From a virus (lineage: Duplodnaviria; Heunggongvirae; Uroviricota; Caudoviricetes): a DNA stretch of 64,000 nt. Of the stretch, positions 16,670-50,165 are shown piece by piece; within the stretch, counting starts at the first letter, position 1; each line of letters opens with the position of its first letter. The position numbers and the translations under genes were made by a program. Location of the stretch: the IMG/VR virus record IMGVR_UViG_3300006056_000031, positions 15,911-79,910 of that record, one strand, 5' to 3'. Below the pieces are notes generated by a model. It was given only the letters and a program-made list of their open reading frames with translations. It was not told the origin of the DNA and ran no database searches.

Positions 16670-16894
16670 TTGCATATGGATCAGAAATATAAAGAATGGT
16701 TGGAGCTTAGAAAAAAATCAACCAACGAGGAAGGTGAACAACTTTGCTACTGCGGACACACAAAGAGATGTGACTGCGGGGATCCTGATTTACTAACATT
16801 TACAGAATCAGTTTCTAGAGGTGACATCGTACCTGACGATCCCAACAATGGATGGAGGACGGTACAACCATCAGGAAACTTTGTTTGGGAATAA
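16670..16894 (+). CDS. hypothetical small Cys-rich protein
   Basis: 74 aa with CYCGHTKRCDCG, downstream of promoter box 16651-16659. Confidence 0.4.
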   Translation: MHMDQKYKEWLELRKKSTNEEGEQLCYCGHTKRCDCGDPDLLTFTESVSRGDIVPDDPNNGWRTVQPSGNFVWE

Positions 16895-16913
16895 TAAACT
16901 AAAAATATAAAAA

Positions 16914-17267: not shown

Positions 17268-17270
17268 ATT

Positions 17271-18014: not shown

Positions 18015-18283
18015 AAGGAAATCTTAAATTAGTAGATGGTGTTTGGATGATGTCATACGACAATCAAGAAATCCCTGTTGATTCGAGCAGCTTCATTAAA
18101 ATAAAATCAATGAATCACGACAACTCGCAGGAGTTTGAATTCGAAATAAGTCACCGCATGAGAGAATCATTCACAGAAATAGCGAATCGATGTATATCAT
18201 ACTGCGAAAGATCTGGCCCATGCGGATGTGACAGGTATTGGAAAAGCGAAGCAAATCACATAAAAACAGCAAAGCTACTATGA
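18011..18283 (+). CDS. hypothetical protein
   Basis: ORF of 90 aa with an ATGA overlap. Confidence 0.4.
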   Translation: MKGNLKLVDGVWMMSYDNQEIPVDSSSFIKIKSMNHDNSQEFEFEISHRMRESFTEIANRCISYCERSGPCGCDRYWKSEANHIKTAKLL

Positions 18284-19080
18284 GCGAGCCAATTAAAATT
18301 GTAACAGCCGGGCTATACGGTAAAAGTTCAAGCGATGATGCATTCAAAAAGATGCTGGAATCATGGAGTCCATTGGATTCATTGGGTGATGGAGAGCCGG
18401 AGGAGTTAACACAGGAGGAAATCAATGAGCGACAAGCCTATATTGAAGACACCAAGAATGGTTACTCTGAAGCTGCTATTCATAAAATTCTTAAAGATCT
18501 AAAAGTTGACGAACCGGTTCTCAACATATACAGATACGGAAGTCGAATCTACGGAACTGCTGATCAGAATTCGGATCACGATTACATTATAGTTACCAAG
18601 GGTGCTATGCTTAAGAGTGGTGCTTTTAAACAGAACGCCATCTCCAGTGAGAATCGTAACATCCAGGGGATTCTTTATTCAAGAAGTGGATTTACTGATG
18701 CTATCAACAACTATGACATCAGTGCTCTAGAATGTTTATCCCTACATCCCAACGATGTTCTTATGAGCACATGGCCATTCAAGGTTCAGAAGTGGGATAA
18801 TAAGGTGATGATCAAGAAGATCATATCTAAGGTTTCTGCATCATGGCACACTGCTGATATGCAGGCAAAGGATGGATTCAGAGATCGTGCTAAGAAAGGA
18901 ATTTTTCATGCACTTAGAATTCTACATTTCGCTTTGCAATTGAAGGTGAATCAAAGAATTGATGATTTCGGTTGTGTTAACTACATCTGGGAGGATTTTA
19001 AATTGATACCTGATGATGAATTTGACACCAGAGACTACATCAAGGAAAGAGATGAACTAATGGAACAATTGAGATCATGA
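18280..19080 (+). CDS. minimal nucleotidyltransferase (pol-beta superfamily) with possible C-terminal HEPN-like helical domain
   Basis: YRYGSRIYGTADQNSDHDYIIV gives the GS-x9-13-D-x-D NTase signature. The C-terminal RDRAKKGIFHALRIL fits an Rx4-6H HEPN-like pattern. Start moved to ATG 18280 (ATGA overlap). Confidence 0.55.
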   Translation: MSEPIKIVTAGLYGKSSSDDAFKKMLESWSPLDSLGDGEPEELTQEEINERQAYIEDTKNGYSEAAIHKILKDLKVDEPVLNIYRYGSRIYGTADQNSDHDYIIVTKGAMLKSGAFKQNAISSENRNIQGILYSRSGFTDAINNYDISALECLSLHPNDVLMSTWPFKVQKWDNKVMIKKIISKVSASWHTADMQAKDGFRDRAKKGIFHALRILHFALQLKVNQRIDDFGCVNYIWEDFKLIPDDEFDTRDYIKERDELMEQLRS

Positions 19081-19277
19081 ATCTAAAAGTTGGAGACAAG
19101 GTAATAAAAAATCCAGCCACGTGGATCGGTAGTGATTTTGATTCCTGGGGAGCAGGTGAGGGTGTGGGTGAGATTGTAGAGCCACCATTTGAACTCGATG
19201 AAACTGAAGTTGATGTGAGATGGCCGGAGGGAAGATGCTTCCAGAAAGCAAGTGAACTTATAAAGGTTGAGGAATGA
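19077..19277 (+). CDS. hypothetical protein
   Basis: ORF of 66 aa. Confidence 0.4.
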   Translation: MNLKVGDKVIKNPATWIGSDFDSWGAGEGVGEIVEPPFELDETEVDVRWPEGRCFQKASELIKVEE

Positions 19278-19504
19278 TAAGAATAGACGAGAAAAAGCTT
19301 GACAGATACTACCAGGAATACCTAAATGGTATTGCGGAGAATCCAGAGATTAGCCACAATTTGAAGGATCTAGCACCGGCAAATTGGTATAGCACCAATA
19401 TGGTTTCCTGCATATTTGCATCAATACTGGAAAGCAATTTCCACGATCTAGCAACATTAGATTTTGAAGTTAAATTTGAAACAATAAAAAATGAAAATAA
19501 CTGA
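19274..19504 (+). CDS. hypothetical protein
   Basis: ORF of 76 aa. Confidence 0.4.
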   Translation: MIRIDEKKLDRYYQEYLNGIAENPEISHNLKDLAPANWYSTNMVSCIFASILESNFHDLATLDFEVKFETIKNENN

Positions 19505-20300
19505 TCATATAGCAAAAGCCATACAGGAATATCCCTCTTTATATAAGGATGTGGATTATGAAAAATCCAAACTGAAAGTGCTAAACCATATATTCTTTAC
19601 TAATGGTAATGGATTAGAGATGGCAGAAACCGAGAATCCTGAGGATGGTGGATATGTTGTCCAGCCGAAACACAAGAAAGACAAGTTTGGAGATTGGAAA
19701 AGAATTAAGGATAAGCCATATGCTTCGGTAAAATATAAGAAAATACCAGATGGGTATTTTGAGAGTGTGGTTTATTATGTATATGGCAGCGGAGGACCAC
19801 TGGAAACTCTACACAGAAAGGATGGCCATGGCGGTTCCGATACTTTATTCAGATACGAAAAAACCGACAGGGAATACCAAAAACCTAGACTTTATGAGGC
19901 CGAATCCAGATCGAATTTTTCACCTTATCCATTGAGTAAAGGCTATGCTCTTGCATGTGACATTTTCTACGAGAATCAATTTCTGCAAGAGGATTGGATG
20001 GCGGAGCTTGTTATTTTGTGCGAGAGAACTCTTGAGTATTTTAATAATCATGAATATCTCGATCATGTTTACTATCCAAGTGATGGACGTGTTGGTAGCG
20101 ATCTAAGAGCATTCAACGAGAAATTTGAAAATTCTGGTATAAAGGGAGTAAACGAATTAAGAAAAATCTGGGGATATGAAGCAAAGGAAACGCCAGTTGA
20201 TCGTGATGAAGTACTAGAGAAGAAGAAAAAATCTTGGGAAAAATTTAAAAATGAGCAGATTAGTTTTTTAACTAAATTTCTAAAAAAATATAAAAAATAG
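19491..20300 (+). CDS. hypothetical protein
   Basis: ORF of 269 aa. Confidence 0.5.
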   Translation: MKITDHIAKAIQEYPSLYKDVDYEKSKLKVLNHIFFTNGNGLEMAETENPEDGGYVVQPKHKKDKFGDWKRIKDKPYASVKYKKIPDGYFESVVYYVYGSGGPLETLHRKDGHGGSDTLFRYEKTDREYQKPRLYEAESRSNFSPYPLSKGYALACDIFYENQFLQEDWMAELVILCERTLEYFNNHEYLDHVYYPSDGRVGSDLRAFNEKFENSGIKGVNELRKIWGYEAKETPVDRDEVLEKKKKSWEKFKNEQISFLTKFLKKYKK

Positions 20301-20301
20301 A

Positions 20302-20550
20302 ATGAGAATAAAAGCAATTTATAAAAAAAACCTGAAAATGCCAGAGGGAAAAGTGGCATCACAGGTTGCACATGCAGTTAAGAATCTTGGTATCACACCA
20401 ATCGATTCGGTGATAGTTGTTCTTGCAGTTTCCAATAAGAAATTTGCGGAACTTGTTGCTGAGCACCCAAACTGTTATGTACAAACCGATCTTGGTTTAA
20501 CCTGCGTGGAAAGTGGTACACGTACTGCTGCTGCATGGATAGAAGAATAA
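20302..20550 (+). CDS. peptidyl-tRNA hydrolase, PTH2 family (compact)
   Basis: LKMPEGKVASQVAHAV matches the PTH2 motif (L.MgkGKiAAQc.HAa). YVQTDLGLTCVESGTRTAAAWI corresponds to the PTH2 C-terminal motif D.G.TqI..GS.TvlAigP. Confidence 0.65.
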   Translation: MRIKAIYKKNLKMPEGKVASQVAHAVKNLGITPIDSVIVVLAVSNKKFAELVAEHPNCYVQTDLGLTCVESGTRTAAAWIEE

Positions 20551-20553
20551 ATT

Positions 20554-21000
20554 ATGACGAATAAAGTTAACATAAACAACAGAAAAGCAAAGTTTGATTA
20601 CGAGTTCATTAGAACTCTAACCGCTGGAATGCAGTTAATGGGTTCGGAAGTAAAGGCTATCAGAGATGGTAGAGTTTCATTTGTTGATTCCTACTGTTAT
20701 TTCAATGGAAAGGAACTTTTTCTGAAGAATCTAAACATTACACCAATATCCTCGACATATACACACGAGCCAAACAGAGAAAGAAAATTACTTCTTAATA
20801 GAAGTGAACTTAAAAAGTTACAGAATGACATGGATAGAGGAATGACTATAGTTCCATTCCGAATTTTTACTAATGAGAAGGGTTTGATTAAATTGGATAT
20901 TGCTCTTGCGAGGGGAAAGAAGACCTATGATAAAAAGAAAAAAATAAGGGAGGAGGATATAGAGAGGGATACGAAAAGATCCATCGCCGGGGATATATAG
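20554..21000 (+). CDS. smpB: SsrA-binding protein SmpB
   Basis: AKFDYEFIRTLTAGMQLMGSEVKAIRDGRVSFVDSYCYF...ELFL.N..ITP..........ERKLLLNRSELKKL....DRGMTIVPFRIF.NEKGLIKLDIALARGKKTYDKKKKIREEDIER is collinear with the SmpB family over its full length. Confidence 0.8.
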   Translation: MTNKVNINNRKAKFDYEFIRTLTAGMQLMGSEVKAIRDGRVSFVDSYCYFNGKELFLKNLNITPISSTYTHEPNRERKLLLNRSELKKLQNDMDRGMTIVPFRIFTNEKGLIKLDIALARGKKTYDKKKKIREEDIERDTKRSIAGDI

Positions 21001-21019: not shown

Positions 21020-22054
21020 ATGAGATACGATAAAAAATATTTGATTAATTATCTAATAGAAAATTATAGCAAAAAGAGCAAATCTGAAATAATCAATGAA
21101 CTTGGTCTTTCCTGGTCATATTTACAAAGAATAGCATCATTAAATGGTATAAAGAGGGAATTTTCGGAAAATAAAAATGTAGGTAAATATTCGATACTAA
21201 CAAACTATGATGATATAACAAGTTGTTATTGGTTGGGATTTATGCTAGCTGATGGTAACATAAGCAAAAAAAATAATATGATGCTTAATTTAGCAATAAA
21301 GGATAAAGATCATATACTCAAAATAGAAGATCATGTTGGGAAAACTAGCGTTTATTATCAAAATGATAATATAATAAGGGTTGTTTTAAATGACTCCGGA
21401 ACATTTAGAAAAATAGCATCCGATTTTGAATGGAAAACAAACAAAACTAAAAATCCACCAGTCCTACCAGAATCAATGCAGCAAGATTGTATATTTTCGA
21501 TGGTTGTTGGATTTATTGATGGCGATGGATGCATTGACGAAAGACATGGACTCGCCGTTAAATGCGATGGCTCGTGGCAAGACATGCTTAATTATTTTTA
21601 TTTGATATTAACAGGAGATTCTAAAAAATATCAAATTGATAATAATGGATATTCAATATTTCGCATAGGAAACATGATAAAACTAAAGGATATAAAGAAA
21701 AAAATTATTGAGCTTAATATTCCGGCTATGGATAGAAAGTGGGATAAAGTGGATATTAACAGGATATACAAATCGGAGAAAGAATCTATTATTTCAGAGA
21801 TGCTAAATAATGGAAATAATATGAATGCAATATTGGAAAAAACAGGATTTAGTAAAACCTTATATTATTCAGTTGCAAATAAGAAAGGTGTAAATATAAG
21901 AAAAAATAAAATATCCAATGATCAATTCATGTCAATAGTAACAATGTACAACAATGGAATTAATCCGTCAGAGATGTCCAGATCTATTGAATTGAGTATA
22001 TCCACAATATATAGGCAGATTAAAAAATATAAAGCAACTAAAAGAAGTTTATAA
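21020..22054 (+). CDS. LAGLIDADG homing endonuclease (two-motif, monomeric type)
   Basis: Two LAGLIDADG motifs: CYWLGFMLADGNIS and FSMVVGFIDGDGCID. Confidence 0.75.
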   Translation: MRYDKKYLINYLIENYSKKSKSEIINELGLSWSYLQRIASLNGIKREFSENKNVGKYSILTNYDDITSCYWLGFMLADGNISKKNNMMLNLAIKDKDHILKIEDHVGKTSVYYQNDNIIRVVLNDSGTFRKIASDFEWKTNKTKNPPVLPESMQQDCIFSMVVGFIDGDGCIDERHGLAVKCDGSWQDMLNYFYLILTGDSKKYQIDNNGYSIFRIGNMIKLKDIKKKIIELNIPAMDRKWDKVDINRIYKSEKESIISEMLNNGNNMNAILEKTGFSKTLYYSVANKKGVNIRKNKISNDQFMSIVTMYNNGINPSEMSRSIELSISTIYRQIKKYKATKRSL

Positions 22055-33167: not shown

Positions 33168-33216
33168 GATTGTGGTGATATATAGAAATAAAGATTCATA
33201 TGTATTTCTATGTATA
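33168..33216 (+). promoter_or_regulatory. imperfect inverted repeat spanning the start codon of the GIY-YIG gene (possible translational occlusion hairpin)
   Basis: TATATAGAAATA-aagattcatATG-TATTTCTATGTATATA. The ATG (33200) lies inside the predicted stem-loop. Confidence 0.35.
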
Positions 33217-34135
33217 TAAAATAACTAACACTGAACCTCTTGATGAAAGAAAATTTTATATTGGTGTAAGAACATCAAAGGTTGAACCATTATTGGATAT
33301 AAAATATTGGGGTTCATCAAAATCACTGAGCAGGGAGATAAGGGAGAGAGGAATTTCAATATTTAGGAAAGAAATACTTTCAATTTTTAACGACAGATCA
33401 GCAGCGGTGGAGGAAGAAATAAGACTCCATATGCTCTATAATGTTGATAAAAATTTGGAATATTATAATTTATCAATAAGTGGATCAATAGAATATGATG
33501 CTTCTGATAGGGTTAGCGTATTCGATAGCGAAGGTAAAACCCTAAGTGTTTCCACCAAAGATCCGAAATATCTATCGGGAAATTACAAATCCATAACCCA
33601 TGGATTTGTAACGTGTAGAAATGATAAGGGTGAAAATGTTAGAGTTAAGAAGGATGACTTCTACTCCAATGAAAAGTATACGAGTCCAAACGTAGGAATG
33701 GTTCCAGCAAAAGATTTTAACGGAAATACTTTCCTTGCAAATAAAAATGATCCAAGGTTACTAAATGGTGAGATAATGAGTGTTCATAAAGGTAAAGTTA
33801 TGTGCACAGACCAATGTGGAAAAAATAGATTAGTTACGTCTGATGAATTTAAAAACGACCCAAATCTGTTTGGCGTATGTAAAAATAAAATCTCGGGAAA
33901 TAAAAACGGGAGAGCTAAAATTATAGATATATTTAATAATAGTGGTGATCTTATTTATAGATGCGATGGAAATTTTAAAAAAGTTTGTATGGAAAATAAA
34001 TTTCCATTCGTGCCATTAAAAAAGTCCCATATAAATGGGGGTGTACCTATATACCAATCAAAAAAAGCAAAAACTGATTCAATTAAAAATGGTACGCAAT
34101 CCTATATAGGATGGTACGCAAAAGAAATTAAATAA
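33200..34135 (+). CDS. GIY-YIG homing endonuclease
   Basis: N-terminal FYVYKITNTEPLDERKFYIGVRT...E (GIY-x10-YIG). Long C-terminal DNA-binding region. Confidence 0.75.
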   Translation: MYFYVYKITNTEPLDERKFYIGVRTSKVEPLLDIKYWGSSKSLSREIRERGISIFRKEILSIFNDRSAAVEEEIRLHMLYNVDKNLEYYNLSISGSIEYDASDRVSVFDSEGKTLSVSTKDPKYLSGNYKSITHGFVTCRNDKGENVRVKKDDFYSNEKYTSPNVGMVPAKDFNGNTFLANKNDPRLLNGEIMSVHKGKVMCTDQCGKNRLVTSDEFKNDPNLFGVCKNKISGNKNGRAKIIDIFNNSGDLIYRCDGNFKKVCMENKFPFVPLKKSHINGGVPIYQSKKAKTDSIKNGTQSYIGWYAKEIK

Positions 34136-35063: not shown

Positions 35064-35381
35064 ATGGCAGATAAAATATTCATATTCATCCTGCTAATAC
35101 ACTTCCTAGCAGATTTTGCGTTACAGACCGACGACCAGGCAAAGGGTAAAAGCACGGATACAAAATGGTTAACGTATCACGTTGCTGTTTATTCGATTAT
35201 ATGGTTGATGGCATCTTGGTTCTATTTTGGTGATTTTAGACAAGCAGTATTCTTTGCTACCGTGACATTCATTTGTCACTGGTGTACAGATTTTCTTACA
35301 AGCAGAATTGGTAAACCTTTCTGGGATATGAGCCATTGGTTCTTAATAAATTATTGGAAAAATATATGGAATCCGATATAG
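35064..35381 (+). CDS. hypothetical membrane protein
   Basis: 105 aa with three hydrophobic segments. Confidence 0.45.
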   Translation: MADKIFIFILLIHFLADFALQTDDQAKGKSTDTKWLTYHVAVYSIIWLMASWFYFGDFRQAVFFATVTFICHWCTDFLTSRIGKPFWDMSHWFLINYWKNIWNPI

Positions 35382-35623
35382 TTATTGGTGTGACTAACAT
35401 ACATTCACAAATAGGTAGGATATATTACAATTTTGAAAATGTTGAAAGAACATATTACCCCGATTTTTATATCAAAAGCATAAATACAATAATAGAGGTT
35501 AAAAGTGAATATACATTTAATATAAAGAAGGAAGAAAATATGGCAAAGTATAATGCCTGTATAAGTTCGGGATTTTTGTTTGAATTTAATATAGTAGATA
35601 GAAATGGAATACGTAGAAATTAA
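35336..35623 (+). CDS. small PD-(D/E)XK-like nuclease (putative homing-endonuclease fragment or stand-alone nuclease)
   Basis: YYPDFYIKS...IIEVKSEY fits a PD-x(n)-(D/E)xK pattern. Confidence 0.35.
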   Translation: MVLNKLLEKYMESDIVIGVTNIHSQIGRIYYNFENVERTYYPDFYIKSINTIIEVKSEYTFNIKKEENMAKYNACISSGFLFEFNIVDRNGIRRN

Positions 35624-36098
35624 AGGTGATCTTATTAAACTTGCATTAGAGGGTAGTTTTGACGTCATTAGTCACGGCGTAAATTGTTACGCCACTATGG
35701 GAGCTGGTATAGCACCACAAATGGCGAAAGCATTTGGTTGTGATAAGTTTCCGTTGGAGAGTCAACAGCATAGAGGTGACTATAACAAGCTTGGACAGAT
35801 TGATTGGAAGATTAATACATACACCGGAGAAAATGGCGAATTTGATTTGGCTGTTGTTAATAGCTACACCCAGTACGGGTTTGGATTAAACCATGATGGC
35901 GGAACCGCTAGACCACTTGATTATGATGCACTTAGACTCTGCATGAGAAAAATAAACCACCAATTCAAAGGTAGACCCGTCGGACTCCCGAAAATTGGTT
36001 CAAAACTCGCCGGCGGTGATTGGGAGATTATAAAAGTAATTATCCAAGAGGAACTAAAAGATTGTAAAGTAACCGTTGTAATATACGATAAGGAATAA
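35604..36098 (+). CDS. macro-domain-like protein (ADP-ribose binding/processing), tentative
   Basis: GDLIKLALEGSFDVISHGVNCYATMGAGIAPQMAKAFG resembles the macro-domain core (GDIT....DaIVNaAN..L.gGgGV..AI..AaG). Motif-level similarity only. Confidence 0.4.
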   Translation: MEYVEIKGDLIKLALEGSFDVISHGVNCYATMGAGIAPQMAKAFGCDKFPLESQQHRGDYNKLGQIDWKINTYTGENGEFDLAVVNSYTQYGFGLNHDGGTARPLDYDALRLCMRKINHQFKGRPVGLPKIGSKLAGGDWEIIKVIIQEELKDCKVTVVIYDKE

Positions 36099-36508
36099 TG
36101 AAGGTTATTTTTGAAAACAAATATACTGGCGACAAAGTAATCAGGGTGGACGAGAAATATCATTTTCTGGATGGGAATAAGGTGCTTAAGGAAACCATTA
36201 AAAATGGAATAATCGATAAGGGTGAAGATTGGGAAATGATTGAACCTAAAGGGGATCTTTATATAAAAGGAACCAACGAAAGGGGTAAGGATTACTTCAG
36301 AAGCTTCTGTAAGGGAATAGAATATCATCCGGGTGACAGTATAACAATACAGAAAAATGTGTCATTTGGTGACGGTAGAAGAGACTTTGTAATAAAGAGC
36401 TTTTATATAAGCGACAAACCAAATGATGATGGAGTTTATGAATACGTTTATGCAGAGACAATTTGTGGAAGAAGTATTCATTTAAGCGAAGTAATAATTA
36501 AACCATAA
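36098..36508 (+). CDS. hypothetical protein
   Basis: ORF of 136 aa with a TAATG overlap. Confidence 0.5.
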   Translation: MKVIFENKYTGDKVIRVDEKYHFLDGNKVLKETIKNGIIDKGEDWEMIEPKGDLYIKGTNERGKDYFRSFCKGIEYHPGDSITIQKNVSFGDGRRDFVIKSFYISDKPNDDGVYEYVYAETICGRSIHLSEVIIKP

Positions 36509-36519
36509 TAAAAAATAAT

Positions 36520-36747
36520 ATGACAAGAGATCAATTTAAAATAGTAGCAAAGTATTACGATACAAATTCATTAACATATATTTTCTATCTCGATATTATT
36601 ATCGGCTACGTTGAAGTTTATAGTGATCTATACTACTTGGAAGTTGAAAAGGATAATTGGAAATCACAGAAAAAGAAAAGAAAACCAGATGCAATCAATT
36701 CTGAGTGTGAGGTTCTTATTAAAAAATATATTGCTGCAAATTCATAA
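36520..36747 (+). CDS. hypothetical protein
   Basis: ORF of 75 aa. Confidence 0.4.
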   Translation: MTRDQFKIVAKYYDTNSLTYIFYLDIIIGYVEVYSDLYYLEVEKDNWKSQKKKRKPDAINSECEVLIKKYIAANS

Positions 36748-36758
36748 TCCAAAAAGCC

Positions 36759-36923
36759 ATGATAGAAAGATTAATAAGCAGACTAACAATGAAATGTGAA
36801 GGTTCATTGTTTACCGACGTTGTTAACGGAAGATCAGTAAATCTTTATATAGATGGCTATGGAGTTGAATGGATGGCACAATCAAAGTGGGGATTTAGAA
36901 CTAAAAGAAAAGAAAATCAATAA
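36759..36923 (+). CDS. hypothetical small protein (54 aa)
   Basis: An ATG-initiated ORF fills the gap up to the 36926 start. Below the track cutoff. Confidence 0.3.
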   Translation: MIERLISRLTMKCEGSLFTDVVNGRSVNLYIDGYGVEWMAQSKWGFRTKRKENQ

Positions 36924-36925
36924 AA

Positions 36926-37999
36926 ATGAGCGATAATAAAAAGTTTTTAAAAGAGTATTTAGACGCATTCTCACCTGTAGGTAGAGAAATCGAAGGTCAA
37001 AAGGTTTGGATCGATTACGTTAGACCATTAGTTAACGAAATAAAAGTTGATGCTTATGGTACCGCATACGGTCTTATTAAGGGAACTGGTGACAAGAAGG
37101 TAATTTTGGAAAGCCACTGCGACGAAATTTCCTGGATTATCACGGAAATCGAAGCAAATGGAATGATCCGGGTGAAAACAAACGGGGGATCCGACAATAT
37201 GATTGCACCATCAATGACAGTATTTGTTCATACCCATGACGGTAAAAAAGTACCTGGAGTTTTTGGATGGCCTGCTATCCACACGAGAGAGAAGAGGGTT
37301 GATATGGGTCCGGAAGTTCATGATCTATGGGTCGACTTGGGCGTTGACACAGCAAAGAAAGTTGCAAAGCTTGGTGTTGAGGTTGGTAACTGTATCACAT
37401 TTGACCAACCATTCTTCGAACTTGGTAAGTATTACGTAGGTAGATCTTTGGACAACAAAATTGGTGGTTATATCATCGCCGAAGTTGCGAGAGAACTTAA
37501 GGAGGAAGGCACAATTTTACCTTTCGACCTCTACATCGTTAATGCTGTACAGGAAGAGGTTGGGTTATTCGGTGCAAGGTTGATTGCACAAACAATCAAA
37601 CCAGACATTGCATTGGTTCATGACGTTACACATAACACAAACTCGCCTAAGATGAACAAAGCCAAATCCGGCGATGTTAAAGGAGGTGCAGGACCGGTTA
37701 TTGAGTACGCATCACAGAACCACAAGGATCTAATCAAGATGGTTAGAGAGGTTGCTAAGAAGAAAGAAATTCCATTGCAGCTATCTGTTGGGTCTTATGG
37801 AAATGACACTGTTTCGTTCTTCCTCGAAAACATCCCTACGGTGATCGTAGCTAGTCCGTTGAAGTATATGCATACTACAGTAGAGATGGTACATAAAGAT
37901 GACGTAGCGGCTGCAATACAAGTTTTTAAAGAGACGTTGAAGCAATTGACCACCGGCACAATTGCTATGATTAACGACCAAACACATAAATACGTATAA
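36926..37999 (+). CDS. M42-family metallo-aminopeptidase (FrvX/CelM/deblocking aminopeptidase-like)
   Basis: SPVGREIEGQKVWIDYV..VDAYGTAYGLIKG...VILESHCDEISWII matches the M42 N-terminal region and the H-x-D-E-I metal-binding motif. Length (357 aa) and domain order fit M42. Confidence 0.75.
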   Translation: MSDNKKFLKEYLDAFSPVGREIEGQKVWIDYVRPLVNEIKVDAYGTAYGLIKGTGDKKVILESHCDEISWIITEIEANGMIRVKTNGGSDNMIAPSMTVFVHTHDGKKVPGVFGWPAIHTREKRVDMGPEVHDLWVDLGVDTAKKVAKLGVEVGNCITFDQPFFELGKYYVGRSLDNKIGGYIIAEVARELKEEGTILPFDLYIVNAVQEEVGLFGARLIAQTIKPDIALVHDVTHNTNSPKMNKAKSGDVKGGAGPVIEYASQNHKDLIKMVREVAKKKEIPLQLSVGSYGNDTVSFFLENIPTVIVASPLKYMHTTVEMVHKDDVAAAIQVFKETLKQLTTGTIAMINDQTHKYV

Positions 38000-38000
38000 T

Positions 38001-38249
38001 ATGGCAGTTTCACCACAATTATTGGACGAAAATCTCCAAAAGGAAGCCGATGGATTTGAAAAAAAGATAGATCTTCATCTATCAAATTCTAAACTTAGGT
38101 CAGGGGGAACTTTAACTCTTAAGGTTCCAGAAGGTATGAGTTATTTACATCTTGAAATAATAAGAGGCAGGTACATCAAGGCTGGATGGAAAAAAGTTGA
38201 AATGAAATCCGATCAGCGAGAAGGCACCTGGTTAGAATTTACATCATAA
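38001..38249 (+). CDS. hypothetical protein
   Basis: ORF of 82 aa. Confidence 0.45.
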   Translation: MAVSPQLLDENLQKEADGFEKKIDLHLSNSKLRSGGTLTLKVPEGMSYLHLEIIRGRYIKAGWKKVEMKSDQREGTWLEFTS

Positions 38250-38254
38250 TAGGC

Positions 38255-38953
38255 ATGAGAAAGGAATCCATAGAGGAAATATTAGATGCTGGAGGATCAA
38301 TAAGATTCCCATATAAAACTGATCTTAAAGATTGGTACTCGGAAATTTCGATAGCCAAACTTGAGGAGTCCTATCGCATCTCCCCAGGGACGACTTTTTA
38401 TTCATTTGATGCTGCAATAAACTATCTATTTAGTATGATTCTAGCACCAAAGAATGCTGCTTACATTATAGATAGACTCAAGAAGAGGGGAATAGAATGT
38501 GATCTTGAAGATCCGGACGAAAACTATTTGTCAGAATTTAAAACAGAGAAAAAGGTGGTGTCTGAGGAATTCAAAAAATTGAACATAGCCAAACAAAAGA
38601 GAGGAACAAAGGAGGAAATAGAGAATTTTCTAGACAAAGTTTCTGCTAGAATTGTTACCAACGGGTTCCCAATCCTTTTACATACTGATCTGAGACTTTT
38701 TGTTAATCTCTATGCGCTCAATTCACCACATATCAGCATCTCGTTTTGTTATTCCATTGAAAGTCAGGAATCCATATTCAGAAATGGGGTTGAACTAAAG
38801 GACTTAACCCCACATAAACTTGAAGCAGCGAGGAAACTCGAAATTTTTAACGATAAATCGGGGGTTAAATATCTATTTACTGAATTAAATGTATCATACT
38901 ATCCAAAGGAGGGCGGTGGGAGAATTTATAAAAGGTACGAACTTAAAATATAA
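38255..38953 (+). CDS. hypothetical protein
   Basis: ORF of 232 aa. Confidence 0.5.
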   Translation: MRKESIEEILDAGGSIRFPYKTDLKDWYSEISIAKLEESYRISPGTTFYSFDAAINYLFSMILAPKNAAYIIDRLKKRGIECDLEDPDENYLSEFKTEKKVVSEEFKKLNIAKQKRGTKEEIENFLDKVSARIVTNGFPILLHTDLRLFVNLYALNSPHISISFCYSIESQESIFRNGVELKDLTPHKLEAARKLEIFNDKSGVKYLFTELNVSYYPKEGGGRIYKRYELKI

Positions 38954-38956
38954 CAT

Positions 38957-39127
38957 ATGCCAAGAATAGAAATCAAGGATTCTAAATTGAGCTCGATTAT
39001 CAAAAAGTGCGAGTCCTTAAAATTGGACACAAAAAAAGTTAAAATAGAAACAGCAACATTCGAGGATTTAACAAATCCCGATGAATATTATACTAAACTA
39101 TATTTAAGATATGAAAACAACAAATAA
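38957..39127 (+). CDS. hypothetical small protein (56 aa)
   Basis: ATG at 38957 fills the gap. Overlaps the 39111 start by 17 nt. Confidence 0.3.
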   Translation: MPRIEIKDSKLSSIIKKCESLKLDTKKVKIETATFEDLTNPDEYYTKLYLRYENNK

Positions 39128-39584
39128 ATACGTGTTTTTCTGGAATGGAATTTACTCGCAATGGCATAAAGCAAATATGACCATTGGCAAAATAGAATAT
39201 AATTCATGCGAGCAATACATGATGCACCAGAAGGCATTGTTATTTGGCGATGAAGAAACTGCAGAATTAATCATGCAGGAGAAAAATCCAAGGGAACAAA
39301 AGAAATTCGGAAGGATGGTTAAGAACTTTGACAAATCAATTTGGGAAAGGAATTGCTTAGCTATTGTATATGAAGGAAATCTTGCTAAGTTCTCACAAAA
39401 CGAGGATCTAAAAGAGGAGCTTCTCGCAACGGACAATAGGATTCTTGTTGAAGCAAGTCCAGTTGATAGTATCTACGGGATAGGATTGGCTGAGGATGGA
39501 AGGGGCATCGAGGATCCATCAAATTGGAGGGGTCTTAACATTCTGGGATCAATAATAACTATGGTTAAAAATGAATTAAGATAG
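39111..39584 (+). CDS. NADAR-domain protein (YbiA-like, DUF1768)
   Basis: YVFFWNGIYSQWH...EYNSCEQYMMHQKALLFGDEE.....NPREQKKFGRMVKNFDKSIWERNCLAIVYEGNLAKFSQNEDLKEELLATDNRILVEASPVDSIYGIGL is collinear with the NADAR/YbiA consensus (FfwG..S.FS ... sEq..qA.K ... P...K.lGr ... W...r..vm...n.aKF.Q...L...Ll.Tg...LvE.s..D..WG.G). Confidence 0.65.
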   Translation: MKTTNKYVFFWNGIYSQWHKANMTIGKIEYNSCEQYMMHQKALLFGDEETAELIMQEKNPREQKKFGRMVKNFDKSIWERNCLAIVYEGNLAKFSQNEDLKEELLATDNRILVEASPVDSIYGIGLAEDGRGIEDPSNWRGLNILGSIITMVKNELR

Positions 39585-40394
39585 AATATATTTTTCACAA
39601 ATAAATCCCTTGTGTGATTTATATTTTTTTGCTGATACTTTATACATTCCTGATTCTGATAATCCGTTTCTTCTACAAAATAGTGATAGATTATCGACAG
39701 CAAATTTCTCTCCTGATTCTATATTAGTTATTATATAATTATTTGGACACCATACATTATTAATATGTACGGTGTCCATTTTATTAAATATCTCGAATTT
39801 TCTGGGTAGATATACGGTTGCTTCCGTATAGATGTACTTTCTGAATTCGTGCGTATATTTATCTATATTTAGATTTGCAAGATCTTTATTTTTATGATCA
39901 ATGCTTATATTACCATAACCCAAATAGACAAGTAGATCCTCTATAAATCTTACATTCGATATTATTGATACCCGGTAGGAATTACCACCTCTGTGTGATA
40001 TGCACCCATCGCCATCAAAATATCCTCTTATAAAATGATTCATAAGACTATGACTGATATTAGGAAGTCTTATTTTAAATCCCTTATTCGTAACACATCC
40101 ATTATCTATTAAATCCAGAACCATTCTCTTACATCCTATTGTTATCTGACAATATGGATTAGCGACAGTATCATATATTTCTATTCTATGATTGGATCCT
40201 ATAGATTCTCTAAATTTCTCCATGTGGCTGAAATCTTTGATTGCTAGTTTTAATCTAGCAAAATTTAGCGTGTTTGATCTTATATACCCGTCAGCATACA
40301 GGAATCCAAGCCAATATGCTTTTTCCTCAGAATCTATGCTACTAAAAAAATTTTCATCAATATTATACTTTTTCATCCGCTTTATATTTTTCAA
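39576..40394 (-). CDS. LAGLIDADG homing endonuclease (minus strand)
   Basis: Two motifs: AYWLGFLYADGYIR and IRGYFDGDGCIS. The annotated first codon is TTG. The first in-frame ATG is at 40376 (MKKYNIDENFF...). Confidence 0.7.
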   Translation of the reverse strand: MKNIKRMKKYNIDENFFSSIDSEEKAYWLGFLYADGYIRSNTLNFARLKLAIKDFSHMEKFRESIGSNHRIEIYDTVANPYCQITIGCKRMVLDLIDNGCVTNKGFKIRLPNISHSLMNHFIRGYFDGDGCISHRGGNSYRVSIISNVRFIEDLLVYLGYGNISIDHKNKDLANLNIDKYTHEFRKYIYTEATVYLPRKFEIFNKMDTVHINNVWCPNNYIITNIESGEKFAVDNLSLFCRRNGLSESGMYKVSAKKYKSHKGFICEKYILS

Positions 40395-40512
40395 TTTCAG
40401 AATCTATAAAATTTCTTATCCTCTTACTCATATCCATCCCATTTTCATCCAATATTTTTTTATATTGAATATATTTATTCTCGTCAATTCTTATCGTGAT
40501 TAATCTTTTCAT
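40363..40512 (-). CDS. small ribbon-helix-helix (CopG/Arc-like) protein, 49 aa
   Basis: Reverse-complement ORF MKRLITIRIDENKYIQYKKILDENGMDMSKRIRNFIDSEIEKYKADEKV. It has the beta-strand (RLITIRID) plus two helices typical of RHH DNA-binding proteins. Its end overlaps the LAGLIDADG gene start by 14 nt. Confidence 0.4.
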   Translation of the reverse strand: MKRLITIRIDENKYIQYKKILDENGMDMSKRIRNFIDSEIEKYKADEKV

Positions 40513-40554
40513 ATCTAATAATTTTGTATATACATATATATCGAAATATATTTT

Positions 40555-40590
40555 ATTTTTTCGGAATAATTCATTATATTTGCAATATAA
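40555..40590 (+). promoter_or_regulatory. phage promoter (-7 box 40575-40583)
   Basis: ttttttcggaataattcattatatttgcaatataa. Confidence 0.55.
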
Positions 40591-40615
40591 TTTATAAATA
40601 TTTATAATATGAAAA

Positions 40616-44634: not shown

Positions 44635-45165
44635 ATGAAAAAAGCAATACTTTTTATCGGCTTACCTGGATCAGGAAAAACATCCATAGTCAATAGAGAC
44701 TATGCCGGAGACTATGCTATAGTTTCTGCTGACCTCATTAAACAATCCCATAAGGATTATGACCCCAAGGATCCGGAACCCCTTCACCAATGGAGTGTTA
44801 AAGAAGCGGAAAGACAAATGCGTGAACTATCTGATAAAGGGATTTCTATGTGCATGGACTCCGGCGGAGTTAATAACTCCTACTCATCAAGAATTCATTT
44901 ATTGGAAAGTATGAAACGTGAACATGCAATAGTTTTAGTTACGTCCTGTCTAAGAGAAGGAAGCGATTTTGAGTGGCTAATTGAAACTGCAAGATTAACC
45001 TCAGCAATGGGAGGTATGTGTTTCAAACTCCAAAGATCCCAGTATGGATCACAACACTTCAACTGGGAAGGTTGGAAAAGAATAATAGCATCCTTAGAAC
45101 CATCAGTCGCCAAAATGAAAGAGTATTATGGCTACGATGAAGATGGGGACGAGGATGATATATAG
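44635..45165 (+). CDS. polynucleotide 5'-kinase-like P-loop kinase (T4 Pnk kinase-domain-like)
   Basis: N-terminal MKKAILFIGLPGSGKTS resembles the T4 Pnk kinase N-terminus (MKKIILTIGCPGSGKST). Walker A is at the extreme N-terminus as in Pnk/AAA_33 kinases. At 176 aa it is kinase domain only. Confidence 0.55.
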   Translation: MKKAILFIGLPGSGKTSIVNRDYAGDYAIVSADLIKQSHKDYDPKDPEPLHQWSVKEAERQMRELSDKGISMCMDSGGVNNSYSSRIHLLESMKREHAIVLVTSCLREGSDFEWLIETARLTSAMGGMCFKLQRSQYGSQHFNWEGWKRIIASLEPSVAKMKEYYGYDEDGDEDDI

Positions 45166-45183: not shown

Positions 45184-45930
45184 ATGAGTATATACAATGA
45201 AATTTATGGGCTCTGTGCCGCAAAAAATGTAGGTCCTATCTTCACCAATGGAAAGGAGCTTACCCCTAGGCTGGAGTTTATAGTGTCGCTTCTTGAAAAA
45301 GAGGGGATAGAATACGAGATCGATCGTTTCCCTGTCGATGAGAAAACGGATGGGTTCAACATCAATCTTTTAGGTAATTCGAATCAGTTTGTAGTTGCTC
45401 ATCATGATATAGTTAATCCAAAATCCGATAATGCAAATGATAATAGCTGTTCAGTTATTAATGCAATTGCACTTAAGAAATTGGTACCATCTATAAATGT
45501 ATCGATATTGGACGGCGAGGAGTATGGAGGATTTGGATCCAAGCATCTAAGCGAAAGAATTAATGCAGGAGATTTTGGTGATATTAAATGGGTACTTAAT
45601 TTCGAGTTAACCGGCAGAGGGGGTGAAGACTTCTTTATTGGCGACTACCCAGGGCCACTAACAGATCACATCCAATCCATCTTTGATTGTCCAATAGTTA
45701 GAACACCTTTCAATGATTCAGTTATTTTCAGAAAGAATGGTATAGATTCTGTTGTTATCAATCCATTACCTCCAACAGATAAGAAAACACCAGTTGTTTG
45801 TTCCGATGGGAGATGCTTAGATTTTGAAGTTCTATTTCTATGTCATAGAATGGAAGACTCTGTAGATAAGATATCACCTGCAGATATGAAGGCATTCGTT
45901 GAGAATATAGCCGCAAAAATAATTACATAA
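45184..45930 (+). CDS. M28/M20-like zinc peptidase fold protein
   Basis: VVAHHDIVNP...NANDNSCSVINAIAL...ILDGEEYGGFGS fits the co-catalytic metallopeptidase pattern H.D...D(N)..G..a.le.a...f.gaEE.G..GS. Confidence 0.45.
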   Translation: MSIYNEIYGLCAAKNVGPIFTNGKELTPRLEFIVSLLEKEGIEYEIDRFPVDEKTDGFNINLLGNSNQFVVAHHDIVNPKSDNANDNSCSVINAIALKKLVPSINVSILDGEEYGGFGSKHLSERINAGDFGDIKWVLNFELTGRGGEDFFIGDYPGPLTDHIQSIFDCPIVRTPFNDSVIFRKNGIDSVVINPLPPTDKKTPVVCSDGRCLDFEVLFLCHRMEDSVDKISPADMKAFVENIAAKIIT

Positions 45931-46178: not shown

Positions 46179-48095
46179 ATGCACGAACAAATTTCAAATT
46201 TATTAGGGTATGCTTGGTGGATTATTCCAATTCTAGCTGTACTATTTTACAAATTCACTCTCCGAGTATTCTTCGGTATGGTAATTATCCCAGAGGATAA
46301 AATTGGTCTAGTTACCAAAAAATTCGTACTTTTCGGATCAAACAAAACATTACCTGATGGTAAGATTATTGCTCTTAATGGAGAACCTGGATTTCAGGCC
46401 GACACATTAGCACCTGGATTATATTGGCTCTATTGGCCTTGGCAATTCACAATCGACCAATCTCCATTAACAGTTATACAAAAAGGAAAAATCGGAATAA
46501 TCACATCCAAGGACGGTGCTCAGCTTCCAACAGGGTCTATTTTAGCCAGACACGTTGATTGCGATAACTACCAGTCAGCTAGGGAATTCTTAACTAACGG
46601 AGGTCAACGTGGTAAGCAGGTTGGGTACCTTAACAATGGGGTTTACCGTATCAATAGACACATCTTTGAAATCTACGAGTCAGATATTACTTATATTGAA
46701 GACGGAATGGTTGGGGTAATAACTGCATTGGATGGTATACCTCTTAAAACCGGATCGATCGCAGGATCAACGGTGGAGGGGCATAACAACTTCCAGGATT
46801 TTGATAAATTCCTAGAAAACGGTGGACAAAGAGGACTTCAAGTTCAGGTCATCCAGGCAGGTTCGTATTCAATTAATCCTTGGGCAATAGAAATAGAGAA
46901 GAAGGAGATGACACAGATACCAATTGGTCACGTTGGAGTTGTTATATCTTATGTTGGAGACGAGGGAGTTGATACCACGGGAGAGGGATTTAAGCATGGG
47001 AATATCGTTCAGAAAGGACAAAAGGGTGTTTGTATTACGCCATTGGACCCAGGTAAATATGCAATCAATCCATACACCCACAAGATTGACTTGGTAGCCA
47101 CCACAAACATTGTTTTAAATTGGGCTGATTCAAAGAGTGAGTCACATAATCTTGACGAGGGTCTATGCACTATAACTGTTCGGTCAAAAGACGGTTTTAC
47201 TTTTAATCTCGATGTTGCTCAAATTATCCATATACCAGCATCGGAGGCACCTAAAGTTATTGCTAGATTTGGATCCGTTCCGAATTTAGTTTCGCAAATT
47301 CTACAACCAACAATAGGTAATTACTTTAGAAATTCAGCACAGGATTCCGATGTTATTTCATTTCTAAACGATCGTCAGAAAAGACAGAATGCAGCAAAGA
47401 GTGAGATTAAAAGGGTTCTTGATGAATATAATATTCATTCGGTGGATACACTGATAGGTGACATTACACCACCTGAAACTCTAATGAAAACATTAACAGA
47501 TCGTAAAATTGCACAGGAAGAGGAGGTAACATTCGAGACTCAGAAAAAAGCACAAGATCAACGTAAAACCCTTGAATCAGCAAAAGCCTTGGCTAACATG
47601 CAAGGAGAAATGGTAAGTGCCCAGCAATCGGTTGAGATCTCTCAAAGAAAAGCGGAGGCTGAAGTTAAGAGATCAGAAGGGGAAGCTAAAGCTATCGAAA
47701 TCAAAGCTGGAGCGGAGGCAAAAGCAAAAGAGTTAATGGCAAAAGCAGATGCTACTCAAATCGAAGTAACAGGTAAGGCTGAGGCTTCTAAGATTGAAGC
47801 TATCGGTAGAGCGACAGCAGAAGCTTACGAGAAACAAGTTCAAGCGATGGGTGCTGATAACTTCGGACAATTAAAAGTTGTTGAGTCAATCGGTGTTAAC
47901 AACATCAAGATCATTCCGGAAATTCTTATCACTGGTAGCGGTGATGGTGGTAATGGACCAATCTCAGGATTGCTTGGGATGGAATTACTAAACCAGGTTA
48001 ACGCTAGAAAAGCTACTACTGAGGTTAAGGAAACTCCAGAGGTAACTCCATCAAGTCCAATTAGTCAGGAAGGACCTAAAAGAGGTAACAAATAA
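46179..48095 (+). CDS. large membrane-anchored protein with internal triplicated module and Ala/Glu/Lys-rich coiled coil (flotillin/SPFH-like architecture)
   Basis: N-terminal TM segment WWIIPILAVLFYKF. Three repeats of (I/V)G(I/V)(I/V)T..DG..L.TGSI, each followed by FL.NGGQRG.Q. C-terminal AEAEVKRSEGEAKAIEIKAGAEAKAKELMAKADAT... resembles bacterial flotillin EA-repeat coiled coils. Confidence 0.45.
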   Translation: MHEQISNLLGYAWWIIPILAVLFYKFTLRVFFGMVIIPEDKIGLVTKKFVLFGSNKTLPDGKIIALNGEPGFQADTLAPGLYWLYWPWQFTIDQSPLTVIQKGKIGIITSKDGAQLPTGSILARHVDCDNYQSAREFLTNGGQRGKQVGYLNNGVYRINRHIFEIYESDITYIEDGMVGVITALDGIPLKTGSIAGSTVEGHNNFQDFDKFLENGGQRGLQVQVIQAGSYSINPWAIEIEKKEMTQIPIGHVGVVISYVGDEGVDTTGEGFKHGNIVQKGQKGVCITPLDPGKYAINPYTHKIDLVATTNIVLNWADSKSESHNLDEGLCTITVRSKDGFTFNLDVAQIIHIPASEAPKVIARFGSVPNLVSQILQPTIGNYFRNSAQDSDVISFLNDRQKRQNAAKSEIKRVLDEYNIHSVDTLIGDITPPETLMKTLTDRKIAQEEEVTFETQKKAQDQRKTLESAKALANMQGEMVSAQQSVEISQRKAEAEVKRSEGEAKAIEIKAGAEAKAKELMAKADATQIEVTGKAEASKIEAIGRATAEAYEKQVQAMGADNFGQLKVVESIGVNNIKIIPEILITGSGDGGNGPISGLLGMELLNQVNARKATTEVKETPEVTPSSPISQEGPKRGNK

Positions 48096-49256: not shown

Positions 49257-50165
49257 ATGAGTGAGATTAAAAAACATATATCTGTATCACAGGTGGACAG
49301 TGGACATGGGATATTAACTTACCTGGCCACAGAATTAAAGGATACACCTAGCGAAGACGGATTTCCAGAAATCGGAGTAACAACAAAAACAAAACTTGTT
49401 GAACTAGAGACATATCGGGTTAAATCAACAGTCAATAACGAACAGATACAAGATCTTGATGCACTCCATGGTATTGATGCTATGACAATGATTGAATCCG
49501 CCCTTAGAGGAGAATCCAGTACAGGTCAAGAAAAGCAGATTTATAAAAAAATGAAATTGCTTGGCTATGAATCAAACAGAAAGCTATGGACAAAAATCCA
49601 AAATCTTGCCAATAAATGGACAGGGTATATTCCAATGGTTGATGTATCAAAGAATGGGGAATTAGTAAGAAAGGTACTACTTTTATCCTATCAAATAGCG
49701 GCTGCTTCGAGAATTGGACCAGCAAACTTTGTTATAATAGGTCCCGGATTATTACCGCATTTCTCCGACAGCGAAGGATTCAGTCCGATTGAACATGATT
49801 CATCAATGGGACAGAGAGGACTATCAGGATTAATCTATAAATGCGGGGTATACAGGGGAAAAATTGAAATCCTAGTAAATCCAAATCTTAACTGGAAGGA
49901 TAAAAGAGTGGTTATAGGTAGAAATAACGGACCGATGAATGAAGGAATATTTCTAGTTGAGCATTCAGAGGGCGAGGGTTTCAATAGAAGTGAAAGAGTA
50001 AACCATGCTTCTCTTACAACCGAGGTTGATATTACATTAATAAAAAGATATGGTCTAGTTCACACACAAAACGCATCAAAAAATTACATAACGATAACTT
50101 GTACTGATAAAAAACATAATATCATCACGCATATTATAGATCGGTACTTTAAAAAGAAAAAATAA
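49257..50165 (+). CDS. hypothetical protein
   Basis: ORF of 302 aa. Confidence 0.5.
   Translation: MSEIKKHISVSQVDSGHGILTYLATELKDTPSEDGFPEIGVTTKTKLVELETYRVKSTVNNEQIQDLDALHGIDAMTMIESALRGESSTGQEKQIYKKMKLLGYESNRKLWTKIQNLANKWTGYIPMVDVSKNGELVRKVLLLSYQIAAASRIGPANFVIIGPGLLPHFSDSEGFSPIEHDSSMGQRGLSGLIYKCGVYRGKIEILVNPNLNWKDKRVVIGRNNGPMNEGIFLVEHSEGEGFNRSERVNHASLTTEVDITLIKRYGLVHTQNASKNYITITCTDKKHNIITHIIDRYFKKKK

Follow-up and report, generated by a model that had tools for sequence, protein, structure and literature searches.

What do a macrodomain protein and a NADAR-domain protein do for a phage that encodes them only 3 kb apart? We addressed this question in a stretch of 64,000 nucleotides (the window; positions 15,911 to 79,910 of IMG/VR record IMGVR_UViG_3300006056_000031), which is part of the metagenomic contig ENA ERZ27257534 k141_654739 (136,584 bp). 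The source phage is T4-like, with a GC content of ~35% and long runs of small co-oriented genes. An initial annotation had presented the pair as a candidate anti-DarTG-type module reversing ADP-ribosylation. Our analysis points elsewhere: the two proteins probably belonged to an extended NARP1 cluster as accessory enzymes and were left behind when its core was recently lost. NARP1 is a phage counter-defence against NAD+-depleting immunity, and its core consists of Adps and Namat. The macro-NADAR pair of the window is made up as follows.

35604..36098, + strand: macro-domain protein, 164 amino acids (aa); Adpp-like, of the ALC1-like/BT1257-SCO6735 class, by phrog_335, PDB matches, fold and BLASTP.
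39111..39584, + strand: NADAR-domain protein, 157 aa; YbiA/PnNADAR-type, stand-alone core domain, by PF08719, TIGR02464 and the 8BAU fold.

Both open reading frames (ORFs) were found at exactly the coordinates first reported, on the same strand and separated by 3,012 bp, and they are called identically in the public gene calls of k141_654739. Their dN/dS (nonsynonymous to synonymous substitution rate ratio) against relatives is 0.07-0.17, which indicates purifying selection in the clade, so neither is a chance ORF. The two domain calls of the initial annotation were right, and its idea of a general capability to process ADP-ribose (ADPR) and NAD metabolites appears correct as judged from homology. 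The anti-DarTG headline fared worse: the macro is nearest Adpp and unlike DarG or AdfM, and in relatives the pair lies inside NARP1 operons.

The relatives of the window region were found through proteins, after a nucleotide search of GenBank phages drew a blank (no megablast match for the 9 kb region). Close relatives, on contigs of 67-430 kb, share the gene order of the window and have two further genes: one is PRPS-like and lies upstream of the macro at a distance of two genes, and the other, of the NAPRTase family, follows the NADAR ~5.8 kb downstream. The PRPS-like protein shares 33% identity over ~270 residues (~120 bits) with Adps of Vibrio phage Gary and scores only 36-39 bits against canonical Prs structures; it also stays under every NCBIfam Prs cutoff. 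The NAPRTase-like protein reaches 319 bits (E=5.5e-94) against 9W5W/9W5X, the PDB entries of phage Namat (PMC12774641), and ~75 bits against canonical NAMPTs. Because these scores to Adps and Namat are far above those to Prs and NAMPT, we identify the system of the relatives, by homology, as genuine NARP1. The macro finds a place in such a system. A Poa1p-like macro, Adpp, is present in 15% of phage NARP1 operons (NARP1-AP), where it turns ADPR-1''-phosphate, the product of aRES defence, into ADPR that NARP1 reuses for NAD+ (bioRxiv 10.64898/2026.01.28.702374, Osterman et al.).

We then asked how regularly the macro, the NADAR and the NARP1 core occur together. A NADAR-anchored scan of IMG/VR yielded 31 viral loci, with a same-strand macro homologue at <=3.7 kb in 27, an Adps-like gene in 21 and a Namat-like gene in 24. 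Among the 80 loci of a macro-anchored scan, in which Adps and Namat were counted within 8 kb, 48 had both and nine more had one of the two (57/80). NADAR was present in 23 of the 80, accompanied by NARP1 genes in 20 and by the macro alone in three. The cluster is compact in diverged relatives; in locus L025 it runs from an Adps-like gene (8425-9360) through macro (9360-10001) and NADAR (10001-10474) to a Namat-like gene (10559-12076); stop and start codons overlap at the Adps-macro and macro-NADAR junctions, and the domains were confirmed. The order is macro-NADAR in most lineages and NADAR-macro in L024, L037-L042 and L060. Adjacency has thus been kept through rearrangements, which argues for selection on it. 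The macro-NADAR pairing is real and conserved across diverged relatives. In the cultured T4-like cyanophage B23, a NADAR of the window clade (46% identity) sits between NMNAT and Nampt in a NARP2-type operon.

A neighbourhood of this kind had been foreseen in part. Iyer et al. noted NADARs in NAD+ salvage neighbourhoods and a co-occurrence of Macro and NADAR above chance in DNA viruses, and predicted computationally that the two phage proteins divide the labour on soluble ADP-ribosyl (ADPr) derivatives (PMC9503650, PMC7824862). Beyond this general note, we found no description of a NADAR inside NARP1 or NARP1-AP in the searchable literature.

The operons of relatives carry further genes. In L025, the Namat-like gene overlaps at its end with a nucleoside 2-deoxyribosyltransferase-like gene (12063-12533; PF15891, E~1e-33), which may encode another enzyme of N-glycosidic bonds attached to NARP1. 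A small P-loop kinase (Zeta_toxin/AAA_33, weakly like PSTK and polynucleotide kinase; L004/L005/L007, ~14480-14970) stands upstream of Namat in the window clade, with two small ORFs between. A gene of the tRNA-His guanylyltransferase (Thg1-like) family is found upstream of the cluster in L004-L007, L014 and L016 (for example L005 1113-1961), and between NADAR and Namat in the diverged L015, L017, L021, L022 and L036.

The window itself lacks the NARP1 core: neither Adps nor Namat was found by tblastn and Pfam across the window and contig positions 34,246-117,661 (83 kb). To see how this came about, we compared the window by blastn with L005, whose flanks are 95-99% identical to it at the DNA level. 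Four events separate the two, of which three left the following features.

44635..45165, + strand: deletion scar, a chimeric ORF in which aa 1-87 of the P-loop kinase are followed by the C-terminal 94 aa of an unrelated 336-aa ORF.
35326..35694, + strand: replacement scar, ~370 bp unique to the window in place of L005 3853-6584 (2.7 kb).
35336-35623, within the replacement scar: nuclease remnant ORF, the C-terminal piece of a PD-(D/E)XK/TnsA-like nuclease (DUF7487).
39576..40609, - strand: insertion of ~1 kb after the NADAR, overlapping its stop; LAGLIDADG homing endonuclease (39576-40394) and a 49-aa ORF.

The deletion corresponds to L005 14739-18665 (3.9 kb), with its junction in a short microhomology at ~44881-44895. 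It removed the 3' part of the kinase, two small ORFs, Namat, a 123-aa ORF and most of the 336-aa ORF. The parentage of the chimera was confirmed by blastp against both L005 parent ORFs and by the junction sequences, and the truncated kinase copy occupies 44635-44895. Besides the Adps-like gene, the segment lost by replacement had held a 248-aa ORF, two small ORFs and the 5' end of the macro with a Cys-rich extension, and the replacement supplied a new but homologous macro N-terminus. Its remnant ORF matches DUF7487 (2.8e-15) at model positions 146-220 of 220 only, and TnsA_N and PDDEXK_3 weakly. The inserted endonuclease (Pfam LAGLIDADG_3; phrog_4645 endonuclease) is absent from relatives L004-L009, as seen in gene tables and as a blastn gap. 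As the fourth event, a SegE-like GIY-YIG endonuclease stands at the site of the relatives' Thg1-like gene. Mobile endonuclease genes and remnants are unusually dense in the window (12160-12966, 21020-22054, 33200-34135, 35336-35623 and 39576-40394; GIY-YIG+NUMOD3, a weak LAGLIDADG-like ORF, SegE-like GIY-YIG, the PD-(D/E)XK/DUF7487 remnant and LAGLIDADG). Several lie exactly where the window and its near-identical relatives part ways, a pattern suggestive of gene turnover driven by endonucleases in this accessory region.

With the core gone, the two genes could be functionless relics awaiting decay, or could temper the phage's own ADP-ribosyltransferases. The losses are recent, so intact ORFs need not mean current selection, and the deletion that took Namat also ruined the kinase gene nearby. 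Still, both genes are intact and keep all invariant residues. A separate lineage likewise keeps the pair outside NARP1: in L059 (7992-10021) and L097 (7992-10194), a macro of 166 aa with no extension and a NADAR of 170 aa lie ~1 kb apart with two unrelated ORFs between, and neither Adps nor Namat occurs within 8 kb. Most phage homologues of the macro family are not NARP1-linked, which makes a stand-alone function common. As for tempering, Pfam annotations of the contig contain no ADP-ribosyltransferase (ART) domain, nor any DarT, KptA or NMNAT domain. We regard decay or tempering as very unlikely.

Next, we considered which macrodomain class the window protein belongs to. The initial annotation named a failure of the macro call in profile search as a ground for refutation, and such a failure occurred for Pfam only (no match at E<=0.01, PF01661 included); PF01661 does match some close homologues and the L037 copy, and PHROG, PDB sequence and fold searches all support a macrodomain. 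The protein matches phrog_335 ('phosphatase') at E=6.6e-42, and its PDB sequence matches are BT1257 (E~1e-11), SCO6735, TARG1/OARD1 and Poa1p. An AlphaFold2 (AF2) model (pLDDT 90.4) gave BT1257, TARG1, DarG, Poa1p and viral macrodomains as best Foldseek matches. The top 50 PDB matches, all at probability 1.00, consisted of natural macrodomains and of designed serine hydrolases with macro-like scaffolds (OSH55 series). Among the residues invariant in 38 homologues are H24, N27, G33-A34-G35, Q90, G132 and L135-A136-G137, and both glycine-rich ADPr-binding loops (G33-A34-G35 and G132...L135-A136-G137-G138) are kept.

We compared this protein by BLASTP with NARP1-associated macros, taken from Table S1 of bioRxiv 10.64898/2026.01.28.702374, and with DNA-acting enzymes. 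It aligned over its full length with the macro of Acinetobacter phage phiAbaA1 (107 bits, 37.5%, E 2.6e-34) and with the tested Adpp of Vibrio phage Gary (65.5 bits, 34.8%, E 7e-18); the macro of Pseudomonas phage PAK_P1 gave 70 bits (32.3%) and BT1257 62.8 bits (30.5%). AdfM (PhiKZ gp104), the published phage macro that reverses DarT2 damage (PMC13309987), gave a nonsignificant 20.8 bits over 37 aa (E 0.008-0.075), and the NCBIfam DarG model 26.6 bits in the C-terminal loop only (cutoff 250). Adpp-type and BT1257/SCO6735-type macros are evidently sister groups sharing a Gln motif, and the window macro falls on the Adpp side, not by a wide margin. Its Q90 occupies the position of the catalytic Lys of DarG (K80) and TARG1. 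At the same position SCO6735 has an essential Gln85; that enzyme hydrolyses thymine-ADPr DNA and can save cells from DarT (PMC9411070). The loop that corresponds to the SCO6735 mobile loop with Lys89 and Lys94 reads GFGLNHDGGTAR in the window macro and has no Lys.

Several side observations concern this gene. In relatives it has an N-terminal extension of ~28-50 aa with a CxxC...CxxxC pattern (e.g. MRTVIGGCMYCEGKCNKYCLHED...), possibly a zinc knuckle (L005 6404-6490, L006 6228-6314, L007 7381-7467, L025 9360-9550). The extension is lost in the window macro and is absent from published Adpp sequences too. The closest cultured-phage match of the window macro is in Cellulophaga (Bacteroidota) phages (46% identity). 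Two comparisons were dropped: net charge and isoelectric point as a means of telling DNA-acting from small-molecule macros, since AdfM is acidic although validated as a DNA enzyme, and ICP1 AdfB as a comparator, which turned out to be no macrodomain.

The NADAR assignment is clear. The protein matches PF08719 at E=6.7e-50 (170 bits, Pfam cutoff 35.1) over residues 12-157, or model positions 10-163 of 163, and TIGR02464 of NCBIfam at 143.2 bits (cutoff 73.7). Its best solved sequence relatives are the Phytophthora NADAR 8BAU (E=1.3e-15) and then E. coli YbiA. Foldseek with its AF2 model (pLDDT 80.8) found 8BAU (query-normalised TM-score, TMq, 0.83) and YbiA 2B3W (0.70) in the PDB, and nothing else significant. 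The ADPr-contacting residues of PnNADAR are E43, K50, R79, W89, R93, E125, D130 and W133 (PMC11543638, Schuller et al.). The window protein has E34, K41, R68, W78, E114, D119 and Y122 at the equivalents of all but R93, which aligns to C82 at a position that is not conserved. The first six are invariant in 30 homologues, and most relatives have W in place of Y122. Subfamilies can be told apart at the E125 position, which is Glu in the YbiA subfamily, Asp in DarT1-linked NADARs (BC4488) and His in T4-type phage NADARs (PMC11543638). As equivalent contact residues are kept, E114 included, the window NADAR is apparently active, core-only and of the YbiA/PnNADAR type. Its identity is 40% with the aligned part of PnNADAR, 37-43% with the NADARs of rV5-like coliphages, a group including Bas60-62 (43% for that of anhysbys), and 20% with T4 AdfN (gp30.3), where the diagnostic residue is His. 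We found no riboflavin (rib) genes in window or contig annotations and no rib fusion of the NADAR. A further NADAR match, in 'Acinetobacter phage MD-2021a' (L047, CAKLQH020000014.1), was rejected as bacterial chromosomal DNA in a mislabelled record, with infC, rpmI, rplT, pheS and pheT around ybiA.

These assignments bear on whether the pair works on DNA as a two-enzyme anti-DarTG kit, the NADAR removing DarT1 guanine marks as an AdfN-like orphan antitoxin and the macro removing DarT2 thymine marks in the manner of SCO6735, functionally like AdfM. For the NADAR, chemistry speaks for such a kit. All NADAR subfamilies tested de-ADP-ribosylate guanine in vitro, though protection of cells differs (PMC11125620), and phage NADARs that reverse DarT1 guanine ADP-ribosylation have been published as AdfN in T4, Bas32 and Bas60, where these three unrelated proteins counter DarTG1 during infection (PMC11825919). 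Since the activity was found in every subfamily tested, hydrolysis of guanine-ADPr by the window NADAR in vitro is very likely; cytidine-ADPr is perhaps a substrate as well. Its full set of catalytic residues and its 37-43% identity to rV5-like coliphage NADARs also speak for the kit. An anti-DarTG1 activity is plausible by homology; it is already published for phage NADARs and is not specifically indicated here. Its distance from T4 AdfN, its Glu in place of His or Asp, and the absence of the N-terminal extension that forms the proposed single-stranded DNA-binding groove of DarT1-linked NADARs (PMC11543638) all argue the other way. For the macro, the BT1257 and SCO6735 matches and Gln90 would fit an enzyme of thymine-ADPr DNA, and SCO6735-like action is possible. 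Against this stand the missing catalytic Lys of DarG/TARG1, the missing mobile-loop lysines K89/K94 that are important for DNA activity in SCO6735, the lack of sequence relationship to AdfM, and the score far under the DarG model cutoff. Moreover, the conserved context of the pair is NARP1 and not DNA metabolism. An anti-DarTG1 plus anti-DarTG2 pair had been our lead reading on the strength of the PDB matches and was dropped on the NARP1-AP preprint and the operon context; we now hold such a kit to be unlikely, while giving it more weight than any other rival.

Our preferred explanation, a stranded NARP1 accessory pair, would work as follows. In related T4-like phages the cluster runs Adps (a PRPS-like ADPR pyrophosphokinase), macro, NADAR and Namat (a nicotinamide ADPR transferase). 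The macro would be an Adpp-type hydrolase that strips the 1''-phosphate from the ADPR-1''-phosphate made by aRES-type NADases and so provides ADPR to NARP1; homology and context make this phosphatase activity the most likely one. The NADAR would be a ribosyl N-glycosidase, most likely freeing ADPR from an N-linked conjugate. To our knowledge, the only substrate class demonstrated for the NADAR superfamily is ADP-ribosylated guanine or cytosine in nucleic acid. The operon context offers, as an alternative, a soluble N-linked ADPR derivative made by host immunity: the NADAR stands repeatedly between Adpp and Namat, so its substrate may be an N-linked derivative whose hydrolysis yields ADPR, in parallel to Adpp and RyDEP. 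In the window phage, a microhomology deletion recently took Namat, and Adps went with a replacement associated with a mobile nuclease. The orphan hydrolases should still be able to detoxify or deconjugate ADPR derivatives and unable to feed NAD+ resynthesis. For both proteins we infer all substrates and the role in vivo.

Carried one step further, this proposal would add the NADAR between Adpp and Namat to Adpp and RyDEP as a third type of enzyme that feeds NARP1, converting a host-made N-linked ADPR derivative into ADPR. Candidates would be base-exchange or cyclisation products of an immune NADase/TIR (His-ADPR or an N-linked cyclic ADPR isomer) or an unrecognised product. We put this forward tentatively, as a rather doubtful idea. 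If true, the enzyme would eliminate a signal or toxin and at the same time supply NAD+ synthesis, and would imply an unrecognised NAD+-directed bacterial immunity beyond the reach of plain NARP1 and NARP1-AP.

A number of observations weigh against the reading of the pair as NARP1 accessories. No NADAR is known to use a soluble ADPR derivative as substrate. As Adps and Namat are absent from the window, a NARP1 role is inoperable there unless they are encoded in the unsequenced rest of the genome. The macro is nearly as close to BT1257/SCO6735 as to the tested Adpp, by less than three bits, and has the catalytic Gln of SCO6735, whose class hydrolyses thymine-ADPr DNA (PMC9411070); every tested NADAR acts on guanine-ADPr DNA (PMC11125620). 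Linkage has exceptions: the published NARP1-AP of phiAbaA1 contains no NADAR, macro and NADAR of the rV5-like anhysbys are 19 kb apart on opposite strands with the NADAR unlinked to NAD+ salvage, and in Herelleviridae the NADAR lies among RNA-repair genes, unlinked to NAD+ salvage or a macro. Finally, many scanned loci are near-duplicates, so that the counts overstate independent events.

The Herelleviridae locus raises the alternative of a clean-up after NAD+-dependent RNA repair, in which a Poa1p-like macro would dephosphorylate the ADPR-1''-phosphate/Appr>p left by KptA/Tpt1-type removal of tRNA 2'-phosphates and the NADAR would handle a related ADPr by-product, a hypothesis stated in PMC9503650 and PMC7824862. 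Poa1p is among the sequence and fold matches of the macro, and the Herelleviridae NADAR keeps company with RtcB, RNA ligase and phosphoesterase genes. RNA ligase 2 of phiAbaA1 is directly upstream of its NARP1-AP, and the window has an RNA ligase, a tRNA-binding protein, a CCA-adding-type nucleotidyltransferase and SmpB. Those window genes, though, are 15-28 kb from the pair, Pfam annotation of the contig revealed no KptA/Tpt1-type gene, and the tight operon partners in relatives are Adps and Namat rather than RNA-repair enzymes. This alternative is accordingly very improbable, and the stranded NARP1 accessories remain our preferred reading.

Between macro and NADAR lies one further feature.

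36098..39127, + strand: intervening co-oriented genes of 136 aa, 75 aa, 54 aa, M42 aminopeptidase (36926-37999), 82 aa, 232 aa and 56 aa.

These ORFs are spaced by -1 to +11 nt. The M42 aminopeptidase was identified by Pfam/NCBIfam, and the others had no matches in profile searches (Pfam, PHROG, NCBIfam). They are clade-specific fillers and probably stand outside the ADPr module, because they are absent from the compact operons of the diverged L015-L042. The eleven gene starts in 35580-39111 all have no obvious Shine-Dalgarno motif and have A/T-rich upstream sequences; together with the Cellulophaga-phage match and the GC content of ~35%, this hints at a Bacteroidota host. Scans between genes found 31 sigma-70 promoters (26.7±5.2 in shuffled sequence) and 4 terminators (3.4±2.1), neither in excess, and they therefore say nothing on co-transcription.

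Elsewhere, the window carries other genes conserved in the clade, namely the M42 aminopeptidase, an M28 peptidase (45184-45930), a 638-aa Band_7/prohibitin-like protein (46179-48095) and a 302-aa Gp23-domain protein (49257-50165). The set of RNA-repair and translation-rescue type (11031-21000) comprises the RNA ligase (11031-12122; PF09414/PHA02142), the tRNA_bind protein (16914-17267), the PolyA_pol/CCA-adding-type nucleotidyltransferase (17271-18014) and the SmpB homologue (20554-21000). A second RNA ligase, of T4 Rnl1 type, lies upstream of the window on the contig (L049 19177-20283). ORFs at 22-29 kb of the window had no Pfam matches. Just outside the window (L049 13263-13688; contig ~41.1-41.5 kb), a cREC_REC gene (PF20274) is found beside ClpP, a GIY-YIG endonuclease and an SLT lysozyme. 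Reportedly, Iyer and Aravind predicted that cREC processes cyclic ADPr or 2'-3' cyclic phosphate, and for this reason the gene may encode a third ADPr-related enzyme of the phage.

What is new here is modest. The macro and the NADAR are members of known families and not a new anti-DarTG system, and both the reversal of DarT1 damage by phage NADARs (AdfN) and the neighbourhood of NADAR and NAD salvage are already published. We add a NADAR-containing variant of NARP1-AP in uncultured T4-like phages, a recurrent four-gene form with the NADAR beside the Adpp macro, and a natural case in which the NARP1 core was lost very recently while both accessory genes stayed intact. The latter, with both hydrolases kept, is a built-in comparison between near-identical phages. 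If the NADAR substrate is soluble, it would point to a host NAD+-derived molecule so far without a link to immunity. There is also a caution: phage NADARs should not be labelled anti-DarTG1 by default, nor phage macros anti-DarTG2. The field of NAD+/ADPR counter-defence moves fast; NARP1/2/3, Adpp, RyDEP, AdfN and AdfM all date from 2024-2026.

How, then, does the pair compare with known systems? The window macro belongs to the same family as Adpp of Vibrio phage Gary (KNV71_gp137), with which it shares the motifs H-x-x-N, G-x-G, x-Q-Y/H and G-x-G-L-A-G-G-D-W. In relatives of the window the gene stands directly downstream of Adps and upstream of Namat. The window macro differs in having no Adps/Namat partners. 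The description of NARP1-AP, for its part, includes neither the Cys-rich macro extension nor a NADAR between macro and Namat, whereas the relatives of the window have the extension and often the NADAR. Similarity to BT1257 is also full-length (E~1e-11 to 1e-17), and the replacement of the DarG/TARG1 catalytic Lys by Gln is common to the window macro and SCO6735; SCO6735 and BT1257 hydrolyse thymine-ADPr DNA and Glu-ADPr protein (PMC9411070). The window macro differs from them in a loop without the two DNA-processing lysines, a slightly greater closeness to the Adpp type and a NARP1 context.

Like AdfN of T4 (gp30.3), Bas32 and Bas60, the window NADAR is a stand-alone protein with a Glu/Lys pair at 7-residue spacing (E34/K41 against E36/K43 in T4), and no DarT toxin adjoins it among annotated genes. 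Unlike T4 AdfN it is of the YbiA/PnNADAR type, with Glu for His and low overall identity, and its neighbourhood in relatives is one of NAD+ reconstitution. PnNADAR (8BAU) and YbiA (2B3W) are its best matches in sequence and fold and have the same active-site residues, the subfamily Glu included; it differs from them in being phage-encoded, in lacking a riboflavin fusion or neighbourhood, and in occurring in NARP1/NARP2-type operons in relatives. RyDEP sets a precedent for the role suggested for the NADAR, since it too would be a glycosidase serving NARP1 as an accessory. This phage RyR-domain glycosidase, inserted in a NARP1 operon, opens the immune ADPR derivative 2'/3'cADPR to linear ADPR, from which Adps and Namat make NAD+ (PMC13232231). 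The two folds are unrelated, and the bonds cleaved differ as well, being O-glycosidic between two riboses for RyDEP and N-glycosidic for NADARs.

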